From an uncultured Clostridium sp. (lineage in GTDB: Bacteria; Bacillota; Clostridia; TANB77; CAG-508), in the NCBI GenBank assembly GCA_948469315.1, contig CAOKLQ010000004.1, positions 3,517 to 67,516 of the forward strand: a DNA stretch of 64,000 nucleotides, read 5' to 3'. Under the pieces are notes generated by a model, which saw nothing but the letters and a program-made list of their open reading frames with translations, did no database searches and was not told where the DNA came from. A program made the translations under genes and the position numbers. Positions 47,233 through 57,867 of this stretch are shown here, one piece after another. Numbering within the stretch: the stretch's first letter is position 1; each line of letters opens with the position of its first letter.

Positions 47233-47326
47233 ATATTTTCCTCCTCTTATGGCTTTTCCATAATTTTCTTTAATATAATATATGAATTTGGGCAAAAAGT
47301 CAATGTTTTGTTGTGTGTTTTTATGT

Positions 47327-47360
47327 AAAATCCCTAAGCCAAAAATTGCTTAGGGATTTT
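47327..47360. terminator. Bidirectional terminator at the left edge of the island
   Basis: AAAATCCCTAAGC-caaaaatt-GCTTAGGGATTTT. A second hairpin TAATAAGG...CCTTATTA follows at 47363-47391. Confidence 0.7.
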
Positions 47361-47400
47361 ATTAATAAGGTTTAAAACTTTCGCCTTATTAAGTGTCATT

Positions 47401-49176
47401 TTAATTTCCAAATCTGTATATCTTATCTGAATTTGTAATTGTAAATCCTCCATTTATAAATTCTAAATGGCTATCTTCTGTTACTACCTTACACGGAAAA
47501 GATTTAGAGACATTAGTTCCTACATTTAATCCAATAATTTGTGCATTTCCTGGCTCATAAATCGTATTCCCTGCAAAGCAGATACCAGAAAGTGGCATTG
47601 CTGAATATTTCCATGTGGTGTTATCTTCTACAATTCTTTTTTCTCCAAATACTAAGGTTCTAAAGCTACCATCTAGCTTTTCATAAATGAACAACCATCT
47701 TTTAGTCTGCTCATCATATTTTAAAGCATATTCTGTAATTGGTTCATTACAGTCAATCTCATATGTGTGACCATTAGCAACTACTATTGCCCTTTGCGGA
47801 TAGAAAGATGCAATAAATCTTGTTTTATCATCAATGATTTTAAAAATAGGCTTATTTACAAAGTCTTCGCTTTGCTTAAATGTTCCTCTTCTTGTTAATT
47901 TCATTGATTTAAGTCTTCCATTTCTATCAACATAATAGAGCGTATCATCTACCATATCATAATTTGACTTGTGAGCTTTTTCAACCTCATAAGTTCTTTG
48001 TGTATTATTGTCCTGAATAGTAATTACATCATCTTTAATTTCAAGGATGTATTTTCCATCATTAGTAAATTCAATAATTGATTTACCATTAACATTTACT
48101 CTTTTCCCAGTTTTCCTATGCACAATCTTATGATCTCTAGACAAATATACTTTGTCTGATAATATACACTCAACATCATCAGATTCAAATATAATTGTAA
48201 GCATAATATTTGAGGTATTAGCTGCTAATTGTTTCTTTGGAGCTGACTGCATCTGTGCATTTTTATTGCATACTGGGCACTCTCCAAATTTTGAATAATA
48301 ATAGCCATTATGTTTTTTACAATATGACATATTATTATATAATTCTTCAAGATATGGAAGAATGTTTTGTCTTAAATTTCCTTCAAAGATTTCCTTAAAT
48401 TTCTCTAATAATTCTGGCGAGATCCAATTCCAAGACGGAGTTGTTGACCTTATACCTACATTATGAGGTCCAAGTACAGAAATTTTATTAGCTATTCTTT
48501 CCTTGAAGTTCCATTTAGGCTCTTTAGCATATTGTCCTCCAAATGGATGTACTTGAGCTAAAATATAAAAACATAAAACTGCTAGTGCAAAATTATCTGT
48601 TTTTTCTGTTAACTCAATTACTCCATTTGACTTATATGCTTCTGGTGCAGTGTAATTTTCAGTATATGTTACCGCATACACTTTCCCTTTTATACCATAA
48701 CTATCTGTATCAACAGCATATACCTTTTTTCCCATTATTGAAAAATTTTGATCATTAATATCTCCTACAATGTATCCCATTTTATGCAATTCTTCCACCA
48801 TTTTTGCAACTGCAATAGCATACCTTAATACGTCTTTATTTGATAATCTATTTTTCTTTAAATGGTTGCGTTTTGTAAGCTGCCGTATTGGATCATCTTC
48901 TTTTAATCTTTCCATAATATAGGCTTCAAAAGATTGACCTACATATACAGAATCAATTGGCCCAATAACATTTTCAGGAAATTTTTGAGTAATAAAACAT
49001 TTTACTACTACTTCTTTCCTTTTTTTATCAATTGGTATTCCTGTTTGAGGATTTTTATCTTTGAAAATTTTAATTACGGTGTTTTCATCATACCCAGCAA
49101 TGTCGGCTTCTCCTCCTTCTGCAATGTAATTACTTTTTTTAAGAGAATCTAATTGGCTTTTTGTCATTGTTATCAT
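47401..49176 (-). CDS. Ser/Thr protein kinase-like protein, third gene of a TerY-P triad
   Basis: VIKIFK lysine, catalytic-loop-like VGDINDQN, DFG-like VDTDSYG, and a Cys-pair region CKKH...CPVC. Start taken at ATG 49176, which follows GGAGG. Confidence 0.75.
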   Translation of the reverse strand: MITMTKSQLDSLKKSNYIAEGGEADIAGYDENTVIKIFKDKNPQTGIPIDKKRKEVVVKCFITQKFPENVIGPIDSVYVGQSFEAYIMERLKEDDPIRQLTKRNHLKKNRLSNKDVLRYAIAVAKMVEELHKMGYIVGDINDQNFSIMGKKVYAVDTDSYGIKGKVYAVTYTENYTAPEAYKSNGVIELTEKTDNFALAVLCFYILAQVHPFGGQYAKEPKWNFKERIANKISVLGPHNVGIRSTTPSWNWISPELLEKFKEIFEGNLRQNILPYLEELYNNMSYCKKHNGYYYSKFGECPVCNKNAQMQSAPKKQLAANTSNIMLTIIFESDDVECILSDKVYLSRDHKIVHRKTGKRVNVNGKSIIEFTNDGKYILEIKDDVITIQDNNTQRTYEVEKAHKSNYDMVDDTLYYVDRNGRLKSMKLTRRGTFKQSEDFVNKPIFKIIDDKTRFIASFYPQRAIVVANGHTYEIDCNEPITEYALKYDEQTKRWLFIYEKLDGSFRTLVFGEKRIVEDNTTWKYSAMPLSGICFAGNTIYEPGNAQIIGLNVGTNVSKSFPCKVVTEDSHLEFINGGFTITNSDKIYRFGN

Positions 49177-49189
49177 ATTGTCATCCTCC

Positions 49190-49930
49190 TTAAAATACAA
49201 TGCTTATATCATCTTGGAATATAGGTACTTGTTTTTTTGCTTGACCATTTTCCTCTGAATATTTTTCATTACATTTACCAATATATCGTGACATTGGACC
49301 TTTCTTTCCTTTTTTTAATAATTCAATAAATCGCTCTCCATCAGAATGATTCAATTTTCTCCAAAATCTTAAGCCGTCTGTTGCAACTCCTACATTTACG
49401 TATTTGTCTTTTGAATAAATATGCTCTGTAAAACTTACATCTTCTTTATAAAGTTTTAGCTTTTCTTTATCTACATAATTATAAATAAAATATTTTGGAT
49501 ACTCTTCTCCATCATCTTCGATTACTTCTTTGGTTTCATTAAACAAGACTAATCCATCTTTATCTTGTGTAATAATATAACCATCCCCACATGTCAAAAC
49601 GATATATTCGTCATCTTCTTCAAAAACAGCAAGAATTGTAAATGTACTTATATTGTATAATACATTATTTACATCTTTGTAAATAATTTCCATAGCTTCT
49701 TTAAGCTTAGAAAAAAATTCTTTTACTGTTTCTTCAAAATTTTCTACATTAATATGTTCTTTTTCCCGTAGTGCTAAATTAAACATTCTTGGTCCAATTT
49801 CAGAAAAATCTCCTGAACCACAACCATCCATTATAACTTTTACCTTATGGTCATCAGAAATATAAAAGTAATCCTGATTATTTCTGTTTGCACCAACATG
49901 GTCACTTCCAATTTTGTTTACAGATATCAT
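49190..49930 (-). CDS. PP2C-family Ser/Thr phosphatase, second gene of the TerY-P triad
   Basis: 246-aa ORF with RNNQDYF, MDGCGSG, TCGDGYII and VATDGL motifs. Confidence 0.75.
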   Translation of the reverse strand: MISVNKIGSDHVGANRNNQDYFYISDDHKVKVIMDGCGSGDFSEIGPRMFNLALREKEHINVENFEETVKEFFSKLKEAMEIIYKDVNNVLYNISTFTILAVFEEDDEYIVLTCGDGYIITQDKDGLVLFNETKEVIEDDGEEYPKYFIYNYVDKEKLKLYKEDVSFTEHIYSKDKYVNVGVATDGLRFWRKLNHSDGERFIELLKKGKKGPMSRYIGKCNEKYSEENGQAKKQVPIFQDDISIVF

Positions 49931-50007
49931 ATATTTTTCCTCCTATATGGATAGGAAGGAGGCTATTTTGCCTCCTCCCTCCTTTTAAAAGTTAATTTGT
50001 TACCTCT

Positions 50008-56655: not shown

Positions 56656-56886
56656 CATATAATCTTTAAAATAACAATACAAAAATAGCAGGTATAATAT
56701 ATCTGCTATTTTTGTGCTTTTTACTTATTCTTATTATATTCCTCAACGTCCTTTATTGCAACTGCTACTGCTTCTTCAGAACCTACAAATTAAATAATAA
56801 GTGATTGTGTCTTTTGTTCGTTTTCATCAAAGGTAATTGATTTTTTAAATCTGGATAAGCATCAAACATAGTAATTGCCTTTTTTA

Positions 56887-57576
56887 TCATTTTTCCATGT
56901 TAATATTAACTACCCCACTGCCAAAGATGCTATATGTATCAATAAGCAAAGATACTTTCTCTGGGTATACATCTGCAAATGCCTTAAAAGCTTCCCATTC
57001 AGTTGGAAACATCTCAATCCATGCATGAGCAACTGTTCCTACTGCATTTACTGGTGATCCAAAGACAATCTCTGATAAGCAATTTGCTGTACCTGAGCAT
57101 CCTCCTAAAATAGCAGATCTTGCACCATACAAACTTGCAGACTGTCCTTGTGCTCTTCTTCCACCAAATTCCATAACATTACCATCATTATCAGCAGCAC
57201 GAACAATCTTTGTTGCCTTTGTGGTAATAAGACTGTTAAAGTTCATCGTACCTTTCCACTTGTATCTGGACAAGTACTTAACAAATTCTTCATCCATACC
57301 TTTTGTAAGTAAATACTGGCATGCAATTTCATCAAAATGGTATGAAAGCAAAAACTCTGTAAGCTGCTCCTGACCTGCACTGATTGAATATCCAGATTCC
57401 TTTCCTTTTGCTCCAGGATTTTTCCTAAAAAAGCAATCAAACACCAATTGCGTATCCTTAAAACCGAGCTTAAATAGTCCATTTACCATGATAAACTCAT
57501 AAAAGTCTGTGTTTAATGCATCATTCCGGTAATCCTTCCTTGGTACAAAAGGTACTACTTTAATTGTTTCTTTCAT
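56887..57576 (-). pseudogene. pncB: Nicotinate phosphoribosyltransferase, N-terminal fragment only
   Basis: 229 aa (ALNTDFYEFIMVNG...LLIDTYS) of a family that is normally about 480 aa. Downstream 56700-56886 holds only short stop-interrupted fragments. Confidence 0.7.
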
Positions 57577-57652
57577 TTTGTTATCCTCCTTATAATTAAG
57601 TTTTAGTTTTAAAGCAATTATCTTGCTTTAATTTAAATTATTTGCAATAAAA

Positions 57653-57681
57653 ATTATATATCAATTTACATAATTTATCAA
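57653..57681 (-). promoter_or_regulatory. pncB promoter with the shared core
   Basis: Minus strand reads TTGATA-aaTTATGTAAATtgata-TATAAT. Confidence 0.5.
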
Positions 57682-57727
57682 GTTCTTCCATACTTCCTTA
57701 TACTTATATCAAAATTATAGTTAAAAA

Positions 57728-57756
57728 TTGACTTATGTAAATAAGTGTGTTATACT
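57728..57756 (+). promoter_or_regulatory. Promoter of gene 57868..58830 with the shared core
   Basis: TTGACT-TATGTAAATaagtgtgt-TATACT. The core CTTATGTAAAT overlaps the -35. Confidence 0.45.
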
Positions 57757-57867
57757 TTATGTTAATTTAATATGTATTAATTCCTTTATTCACTAAATTG
57801 TGGAGGAAACAGTTTATCCGCTCTTTAGTTTTTACATATAGTAAAATAAAAAACAGGAGGTATCATC

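Follow-up and report, generated by a model that had tools for sequence, protein, structure and literature searches.

A nicotinamidase-led vWA-PP2C-kinase cassette that recurs in Clostridia and their large phages beside genes of NAD+ synthesis: a candidate phosphorylation-gated nicotinamidase module

We analyzed a 64-kb stretch of contig CAOKLQ010000004.1 (here, the window, meaning the whole of that stretch), a low-G+C (27.8%) chromosome segment of Clostridium type, and describe a four-gene cassette on its minus strand in which a long-form, PncA-like gene, predicted to encode a nicotinamidase, leads a triad of genes for a vWA protein, a PP2C-type phosphatase, and a Ser/Thr kinase. The four genes recur as a unit in other Clostridia and in large phages, where genes for the synthesis of nicotinamide adenine dinucleotide (NAD+) are prominent among their neighbors. 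The reading that we favor, to which we give about an even chance, is that the cassette is a phosphorylation-gated nicotinamidase module serving NAD+ salvage or counter-defense and not a classical TerY-P defense system. The cassette genes, in order of transcription, are as follows.

50767-51729, minus strand: lead gene of the cassette, predicted long-form nicotinamidase (PncA-like), 320 amino acids
50008-50730, minus strand: vWA protein gene (with a metal ion-dependent adhesion site [MIDAS]), containing an in-frame TAG
49190-49930, minus strand: PP2C-type phosphatase, 246 amino acids
47401-49176, minus strand: Ser/Thr kinase with a Cys/His zinc ribbon and a C-terminal beta-propeller, 591 amino acids

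The cassette and its recurrence

The window PncA-like protein had no Pfam match of its own, falling below the Pfam Isochorismatase threshold, and scored far under the NCBIfam cutoff (27.7 versus 174 bits). A profile of 24 family members matched seven PDB entries, and all of the named matches were nicotinamidases or pyrazinamidases (2h0r at 1.6e-13, 1ilw, 2wt9, and 3pl1), among them yeast Pnc1 and the enzymes of Pyrococcus, Acinetobacter, and Mycobacterium tuberculosis (PncA); 3r2j, with the poorest score of the seven (0.0072), is labeled no more specifically than as alpha/beta-hydrolase-like. The catalytic residues D51, K207, and C255, the metal ligands D94, H96, and H173, and a WPYHC motif (WPxHC) are invariant in the 24 sequences, the Asp-Lys-Cys triad, the Asp/His/His metal site, and WPxHC thus being common to this family and to classical PncA/Pnc1. 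The family differs from classical PncA in its length (approximately 300 to 330 as opposed to 180 to 215 amino acids, or about 100 residues more), in an N-terminal extension of approximately 45 residues, an internal insertion, and a conserved C-terminal LEDCMS motif, and, in Clostridia and their phages, in being fixed to the kinase/phosphatase/vWA trio. Like the PncA of the Preiss-Handler route, a constituent of NrtR and NiaR regulons, it has members in pncA-pncB-nadD operons and in operons linked to nrtR.

The window vWA protein likewise lacked a Pfam match of its own, but PF00092 was matched by 5 of 12 family members, and one member weakly matched a vWA-TerF-like model; the MIDAS residues D41, S43, S45, T106, and D142 (D-x-S-x-S plus T plus D) are invariant in the family, and the family profile matches the integrin alpha-1 I-domain. 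A vWA fold with a MIDAS site is therefore supported, the assignment being to vWA, with membership of the TerY subfamily not implied. The PP2C protein matched PF13672 (PP2C_2; 1.8e-11) and retains the metal-binding residues D20, D35, D116, D185, D240, and D241 in 39 to 40 of 40 family members. The kinase, the ATG start of which coincides with that of 591-residue homologues, matched Pfam Pkinase (5.8e-10) and shows invariance of K36, of D139 and N144 (the D-x4-N loop), of D156 and D158 (DxD), of an APE-like motif, and of a zinc ribbon after the kinase domain (C286, H289, C300, and C303; C-x2-H...C-P-x-C). AlphaFold2 models were confident (predicted local distance difference test scores of 90 and 91.5), and with Foldseek the N-terminal domain superposed on IRAK4/DAPK-type protein kinases. 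Full-length fold searches were dominated by kinase domains, and the C-terminal 280 residues were therefore modeled separately, giving a beta-propeller of the WD40/BamB-like kind; this propeller follows the zinc ribbon, and the kinase contains no OB fold. Thus, catalytic residues are invariant in all four cassette proteins, and the identities of the vWA, PP2C, and kinase proteins given in the initial annotation were upheld. A distant relative of the propeller (E values of 1e-9 to 1e-4) also forms the C terminus of a group of proteins of approximately 1,500 to 1,650 residues (P0249, P0254, P0257, P0263, and similar proteins).

The in-frame TAG to which the initial annotation drew attention is real but belongs to the vWA gene (positions 50245 to 50247). 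Three metagenome contigs (L001 to L003) encode otherwise identical proteins with AAG (Lys) at this position, and the TAG is accordingly either a nonsense mutation private to this genome or an error in its sequence; because the vWA gene holds a nonsense codon, the switch encoded here may be broken. The remaining gene calls and coordinates of that annotation were all reproduced, together with the intergenic gaps of 36 nucleotides (PncA-like/vWA), 77 nucleotides (vWA/PP2C), and 13 nucleotides (PP2C/kinase).

Protein and locus searches provided cassette loci from metagenome contigs (L010 to L014, L016, L019, L060 to L063, and L147/148), GTDB species genomes (L029 to L059), and IMG/VR viral contigs (L020 to L028). 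In a tblastn panel, the order PncA-like, vWA, PP2C, kinase was found in every sufficiently long locus, about 45 in all, with the exception of L017, and protein identity across loci fell to as low as 28 to 40%. The 31 loci from GTDB species genomes came nearly all from gut Clostridia metagenome-assembled genomes (MAGs), and about 30 Clostridia MAG species are represented; 551 blocks of the sequence collection list the nicotinamidase found in the cassette of the abundant Lachnospiraceae L060 to L063. The nicotinamidase-vWA gap lay between approximately 20 and 45 nucleotides in most loci, down to 28 to 35% identity, and the PP2C-kinase junction was approximately 12 nucleotides. When the open reading frames (ORFs) of 48 loci were clustered, the four cassette genes were the only universal families, with 41 to 47 loci each. 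The flanks, by contrast with the constancy of the unit itself, are unrelated, including fmt and radical-SAM genes, ilv genes, a UvrD-like helicase with SASP, defense-like genes with a serine recombinase, and phage genes; since the four genes recur in such different surroundings, the cassette can be regarded as a self-contained mobile unit. These loci bear out the initial annotation in placing the PncA-like gene at the head of a unit with the triad, an adjacency that it had proposed for comparison across genomes.

The propeller-kinase family is small, with 120 representatives, almost all of 560 to 600 residues, retrieved by a profile search of 1.84 billion proteins, and, L017 apart, its members were never found without the nicotinamidase. 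In L017, a vWA and a PP2C gene lie 7 kb upstream of a kinase homologue of 32% identity, and there is no PncA-like gene in the available stretch, which ends before the region upstream of vWA; the parent scaffold (L017/L018; ERZ920244 scaffold_5, 167 kb) is phage-like, with many small ORFs and DUF5758 paralogues. The closest other species (L031, positions 2711 to 4485; CAOKJC010000014.1, uncultured Clostridium sp.) has a PncA-like protein that is 85% identical, and its kinase matched as two overlapping pieces, the called protein comprising only 359 residues (P0150); together with the window TAG, this makes two independent disruptions of cassette genes. In L060 to L063 (positions 7795 to 8780), the PP2C of near-identical strains is called at 221, 245, 269, or 281 residues, and a 51-residue ORF sometimes lies between PP2C and kinase, a difference that could stem from variable start sites or from indels in this gene. 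The cassette of L012 (positions 141 to 5740; CANEDP010000026.1) is immediately preceded by genes for DUF4062, DUF6076, a Schlafen/AlbA_2-HATPase protein, and DUF2971 and is followed by a gene for a large serine recombinase.

NAD+ genes, promoter motif, and phage carriage

Upstream of the cassette in the window lie four further genes, which the initial annotation had recognized as a Prs-like/Nampt-like pair, a divergent nadE, and a pncB remnant.

52027-53631, minus strand: Namat (nicotinamide ADP-ribose transferase; Nampt-like) of a predicted NARP1
53634-54476, minus strand: Adps (ADP-ribose pyrophosphokinase; Prs-like) of a predicted NARP1
54727-56655, plus strand: glutamine-dependent NAD+ synthetase, NadE
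56887-57576, minus strand: pncB remnant, N-terminal 229 amino acids of nicotinate phosphoribosyltransferase

All four were confirmed, so that the Prs-like, Nampt-like, PncA-like, vWA, PP2C, and kinase genes follow one another on the minus strand, with nadE divergent and the truncated pncB beyond it. NadE scored 822 bits against NF002730 (cutoff, 473 bits). The pncB remnant matched PF17767 (8.5e-13), and NCBIfam PncB models align over only the first 240 or so positions; with pncB truncated, the locus does not hold the full set of NAD+ salvage genes with which it had been credited. Nor is the pair an ordinary Prs and Nampt. The Nampt-like protein matched phrog_448 (1.7e-151) and carries, at residue 423, GSYTYQYVTRD, which is the Namat signature GSXΦXΦXΦTRD with an aromatic X; this "selectivity clamp" distinguishes Namat, which uses ADP-ribose pyrophosphate, from Nampt (PMC12774641). 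The motif, with V, M, or N at Φ3, was present in all cassette-linked Namat homologues. The Prs-like protein matched phrog_619, a phage "Prs" family (1.4e-62), and fell under every NCBIfam Prs cutoff, and its gene is directly upstream of namat, as in the definition of NARP1. On these matches, the pair is a predicted NARP1 (Adps plus Namat). In this pathway, ADP-ribose, nicotinamide, and ATP are used to reconstitute NAD+, as has been demonstrated for phage enzymes and for a homologue from Paenibacillus foliorum. Bacterial copies of NARP1 are known and active, and their physiological role has explicitly been left open (PMC12774641). Identity of the window NARP1 to homologues was 65 to 82% for Clostridia MAGs, 60% for Sphingobacterium, and no higher than 57% for viral contigs, which places it in a bacterial-chromosomal clade.

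In the 48 clustered loci, the most frequent neighbors after the cassette genes themselves were Namat (9 loci), Adps (9 loci), and NadE (8 loci). The arrangement seen in the window, nadE/adps-namat/cassette, recurs in six species (L036, L037, L042, L049, L053, and L056); the NAD genes are convergent to the cassette in L019, and in L054, a Candidatus Nomurabacteria contig, the kinase is followed by adps, namat, and a nadE-like gene. A small NadE is encoded near the cassette in L027, L041, and L050, and a gene for an NrtR-type, ADP-ribose-responsive regulator follows the kinase in Lachnospiraceae L060 to L063. Members of the PncA-like family that lack the triad are found in comparable company: in a Nudix(NrtR-like)-pncA-pncB-nadD operon in Sporosarcina, divergent from nadE in L004 to L009, from a close relative of the window organism, and, in Sphingobacterium tabacisoli (L064, positions 2903 to 7620), in a five-gene operon of adps-like, namat (with GSYTYQYVTRD), small nadE, long-form pncA, and nrtR. 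The last of these would represent compact NAD+ recycling under an ADP-ribose-responsive regulator and may bear on the purpose of bacterial NARP1.

A further link between the cassette and the NAD+ genes is provided by a 10-nucleotide motif, TTATGTAAAT, which occurs six times in the window against 1.35 expected occurrences, a count reached in none of 100 shuffles. Five of the six copies are in promoter regions of the island that comprises the cassette and the NAD+ genes, three of them inside the spacers of promoter-like sites. The relevant elements, with two hairpins, are as follows.

51844-51872, minus strand: cassette promoter-like site, TTGACA-17-TAATAT with TG, 10 of 12 matches; TTATGTAAAT in the spacer (51854-51863)
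51887-51896, plus strand: second TTATGTAAAT copy, upstream of the cassette promoter, within the perfect palindrome ATGTAAA-ATA-TTTACAT (ATGTAAA-N3-TTTACAT)
54571-54580, minus strand: TTATGTAAAT in the adps promoter spacer, in the nadE/adps divergent region
57664-57673, minus strand, and 57733-57742, plus strand: two TTATGTAAAT copies in promoter-like spacers upstream of the pncB remnant
51968-52000, minus strand: terminator-like hairpin and T-run just after the namat stop codon
49953-49980, minus strand: G+C-rich hairpin in the 77-nucleotide vWA-PP2C spacer, folding free energy of -26.4 kcal/mol, z-score of -3.6

The promoter proposed by the initial annotation at 51844 to 51872 was found as a site, but such sites are not enriched over shuffled sequence in this AT-rich window (59 found versus 55 expected). 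Exact TTATGTAAAT is approximately 23-fold enriched in the 350 nucleotides upstream of the PncA-like gene across loci of other species, and it is also present in the adps promoter spacer of L036, L042, and L049. Because their promoters have the motif in common, the cassette appears to be coregulated with NARP1 and nadE as part of the same regulon. The motif did not fit the type I core of the NiaR site, TGT-N4-ACA, or the NadR box as quoted in the same source (PMC2330245). The sixth copy (11386 to 11395, minus strand) also lies in a promoter-like spacer (TTGAAAA-motif-...TTATAAT), upstream of an ORF (10993 to 11268) for a 91-residue predicted membrane protein that has no obvious NAD link and possibly belongs to the same regulon.

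NARP1 and the cassette are probably separate transcripts, in view of the terminator-like hairpin after namat and of the promoter-like site that precedes the cassette. The spacer hairpin between vWA and PP2C, which had been noted in the initial annotation, proved to be a family-wide feature: in approximately 37 of 40 loci, phage loci included, this spacer measures 65 to 110 nucleotides and contains a strong hairpin (z-scores of -2.3 to -7.9) with a G+C-rich stem of 10 to 15 bp. The primary sequence shows no conservation, and a T-run comes after many of the copies. We infer that the stem-loop may act as an internal attenuator or partial terminator.

Carriage by phages is the other recurrent setting. 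All nine IMG/VR viral contigs that were matched (4 to 230 kb), which derive from large phages, contain the complete cassette, flanked by unidirectional gene arrays that strongly match phage families and encode RtcB (462 bits), a phrog_1735 protein (884 bits), homing endonucleases, a Ro-like (Ro60) protein, NAD-dependent DNA ligase, and a helicase. Further neighbors of the phage cassettes are PNKP, T4-type RNA ligases, RlaP, and NUDIX proteins, an ORF with a T7 gp5.9 RecBCD-inhibitor domain (L020), NadE (L027), and, directly upstream of the cassette in L023, a gene resembling that for nicotinamide mononucleotide/nicotinate mononucleotide adenylyltransferase; judged by gene content, this is the kind of setting used for counter-defense and auxiliary metabolic genes. 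Scans of IMG/VR with one protein at a time (kinase, PncA-like, or Namat) returned nothing, whereas alignment-based scans did find matches. In INPHARED, tblastn identified one unannotated 6.5-kb fragment with the cassette and PncA-like genes of approximately 30% identity in three huge phages. The available phage stretches showed no PncB, and a phage-borne deamidated route would therefore need host enzymes.

Proposed function and competing explanations

The triad recalls TerY-P, a triad reportedly defined by Anantharaman, Iyer and Aravind in 2012, in its consecutive MIDAS vWA, PP2C, and Ser/Thr kinase-zinc ribbon genes in the same order and in the phosphorylation switch that these predict. It differs in always being led by a nicotinamidase gene, in the additional C-terminal beta-propeller of the kinase, where the tested defense version of TerY-P has an OB fold, in the stem-loop that is conserved in the vWA-PP2C spacer, and in its associations, which are with NAD+ synthesis genes and large phages and not with ter genes, restriction systems, or CoCoNuTs. 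The cassette also bears comparison with pathways of NAD+ reconstitution. As in NARP1-AP, with its Macro phosphatase Adpp, and RyDEP, extra genes directed at NAD+ breakdown products adjoin NARP1, but the accessory here is a separate four-gene operon predicted to act on nicotinamide and not on ADP-ribose derivatives; published extended NARP1 operons have Macro-domain and RyR-domain accessories only, and the cassette is missing from the best 80 viral NARP1 loci. Like NARP2 (phage Nampt plus Nmnat), the cassette would provide phage-encoded resynthesis of NAD+ from nicotinamide, a likeness strengthened by the Nmnat-like gene of L023 and the NadE of L027, but its entry enzyme would be a nicotinamidase, opening the deamidated route, and not Nampt. 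Searches of the available literature on nicotinamidase, PncA, or isochorismatase in conjunction with phage defense or NARP1 yielded no relevant paper, and no description of the cassette was found; the fixed combination of a TerY-P-type switch, NAD+ reconstitution, and PncA looks undescribed.

We suggest the following mechanism for a phosphorylation-gated nicotinamidase. Nicotinamide would be set free whenever NAD+ is cleaved by NADase defense systems, sirtuins, or ADP-ribosyltransferases, and the nicotinamidase would convert it to nicotinate, opening the deamidated Preiss-Handler route (PncB to NadD to NadE) to new NAD+. The kinase may sense some signal through its beta-propeller, and, with PP2C, may toggle the phosphorylation of the more abundant pair, the vWA protein and/or the nicotinamidase, the MIDAS site of the former reading or holding a phosphorylated or acidic partner. 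Owing to the vWA-PP2C stem-loop, PP2C and kinase would be kept substoichiometric to the other two proteins, a ratio that would suit a switch whose substrates or effectors are the nicotinamidase and the vWA protein. In the window organism, the switch might decide whether nicotinamide passes via Namat or via the deamidated route, and, in large Clostridia phages, the module might help to restore NAD+ after attack by host NADases; the targets of phosphorylation, the direction of switching, and the resulting phenotype are all proposed on gene content and conserved residues.

A number of observations weigh against this reading. The lead enzyme is a predicted nicotinamidase, its activity being deduced from motifs and context. 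A nicotinamidase beside Namat would compete with it for nicotinamide, such that simple "more salvage" is not self-evident, and the pncB of the locus is a remnant, so that nicotinate could be a dead end unless another copy exists in the genome; these two caveats apply equally to the defense explanation considered below. No NrtR homologue to which TTATGTAAAT could be assigned is encoded in the window. No cassette gene was found within 10 kb of the best 80 viral NARP1 loci and no NARP1 within 10 kb of the cassette in the cassette-bearing phages; since the two sets do not overlap, the link with NARP1 is confined to bacterial chromosomes, and the adjacency of the cassette to a NARP1 of the bacterial clade is best viewed as a feature of those chromosomes. 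The cassette proteins have diverged quickly (34 to 42% identity between loci, compared with 65 to 82% for NadE, Adps, and Namat), which is typical of conflict systems and fits a defense role as well, and the L012 locus looks like a defense island or an integrated element.

The last two points lead to the explanation implied by the TerY-P label of the initial annotation, namely, that the cassette is an antiphage defense of TerY-P type with the nicotinamidase as its effector. On infection, the enzyme would be activated and would destroy nicotinamide, so that phage NARP1 or NARP2 could not rebuild NAD+, and product inhibition of SIR2/TIR NADases would be relieved, locking in NAD+ depletion. We think this unlikely, although it is not without merit: the architecture is that of TerY-P, and TerY-P-like modules (Gao et al. 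2020) are reported as stand-alone defense systems (PMC11090510). The rapid divergence of the cassette relative to its NAD neighbors, its position in L012 and L013 between genes for DUF4062, a Schlafen-like ATPase, and DUF2971 and one for a large serine recombinase, the recombinases that follow the kinase in L035, L046, and L058, and the independent lesions in the window vWA and L031 kinase genes, of a kind common for costly defense genes, point in the same direction. Against it, PADLOC-DB v2 models were matched by none of 12 vWA family members, 17 kinases matched only PD-T4-6, mad6, MkoA, and other generic models, with no TerY-P kinase model among them, and PP2C matched the PADLOC PP2C model weakly (0.0023). 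The label is supported for the vWA/PP2C/kinase-zinc ribbon architecture and not for an antiphage TerY-P system. Moreover, all nine IMG/VR matches are in large phages, among counter-defense, RNA-repair, and NAD-synthesis genes; in nine loci, the window included, the cassette is beside the cell's own Namat, which an anti-NARP effector would sabotage and with which, in the window, it has its promoter motif in common; and the same enzyme family is the housekeeping pncA elsewhere. Of the earlier suggestion of a defense or stress module coupled to NAD+ turnover, the coupling to NAD+ is retained, whereas a classical antiphage label sits poorly with carriage by phages beside counter-defense genes.

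The association between nicotinamidase and triad might alternatively be one of cotranscription only, the triad being a general signaling or host-takeover kinase module with targets elsewhere and the PncA-like gene an auxiliary metabolic gene not regulated by it. The kinase is of the Hanks type with a protein-binding beta-propeller, phages are well known to encode kinases that modify host proteins, L017 combines vWA, PP2C, and kinase with no PncA-like gene in its available stretch, and the PncA-like gene also occurs alone. We nevertheless consider this explanation quite improbable, because, with the exception of L017, the nicotinamidase is directly upstream of vWA in every long-enough locus and the small propeller-kinase family was never found without it. 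Chance colocation on an acquired island, which the initial annotation had held to be equally possible, can draw on the higher G+C content of the island than of its flanks and on the probable separation of the NARP1 and cassette transcripts, but it is refuted, to the point of being negligible, by the recurrence of the four-gene order in different species and phages with unrelated flanks, by the adjacency to NARP1/nadE in eight further loci in three different arrangements, and by the common promoter motif.

A bolder extension of the favored reading, possible but in our judgment clearly short of an even chance, is that the cassette constitutes a hitherto unrecognized, signal-gated third route of NAD+ reconstitution with a deamidated, "NARP3-like" entry, used by large Clostridia phages against NAD+-depleting immunity and domesticated by Clostridia beside NARP1, nadE, and NrtR. 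It would then be the first example of a eukaryote-like kinase/PP2C/vWA switch in direct control of a core NAD+ salvage enzyme. The depletion and reconstitution of NAD+ are now central themes of bacterial immunity, and, to our knowledge, the moves described in this arms race act on NAD+ itself or on ADP-ribose derivatives, none controlling the fate of nicotinamide. The presence of the cassette in abundant gut Clostridia and their large phages, repeatedly docked to NARP1, nadE, and NrtR, offers a concrete and testable entry point, and TerY-P-type triads would gain a definite partner enzyme, open to assay, through which the phosphorylation targets of such switches might be found.

The island and its surroundings

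Contigs related to the window come from MAGs labeled "uncultured Clostridium sp." The island lies between minD (46438 to 47295) and topA (58932 to 60914) and is, as had been noticed, richer in G+C than its surroundings (32.4% versus 26.9% in the rest of the window), being the top-scoring 10.5-kb stretch of the window by this measure; the G+C content at third codon positions is 0.28 to 0.31 in the vWA and PncA-like genes and 0.10 to 0.12 in minD and topA. A prophage origin for the locus was considered and is not supported, the flanks being minD/minE and topA with no phage genes seen there and tRNA genes being absent. Megablast with the whole island gave no match to INPHARED phages. The island is directly upstream of minD, as initially described, with minD and then minE directly 3' of the kinase; no minC came to light in the ORFs that were inspected, the window not having been searched systematically for MinC. 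After a normal N-terminal domain, MinE (45753 to 46415) continues into a low-complexity tail of approximately 130 residues in which Asn, Ser, and Gln are abundant. Between the pncB remnant and topA, an ORF for a 320-residue protein (57868 to 58830) with no Pfam, PADLOC, or convincing NCBIfam match encodes an N-terminal hydrophobic segment and Lys/Glu-rich repeats, and, toward the other end of the window (1151 to 8990), two very large ORFs of 883 and 1,728 residues lie on the minus strand.

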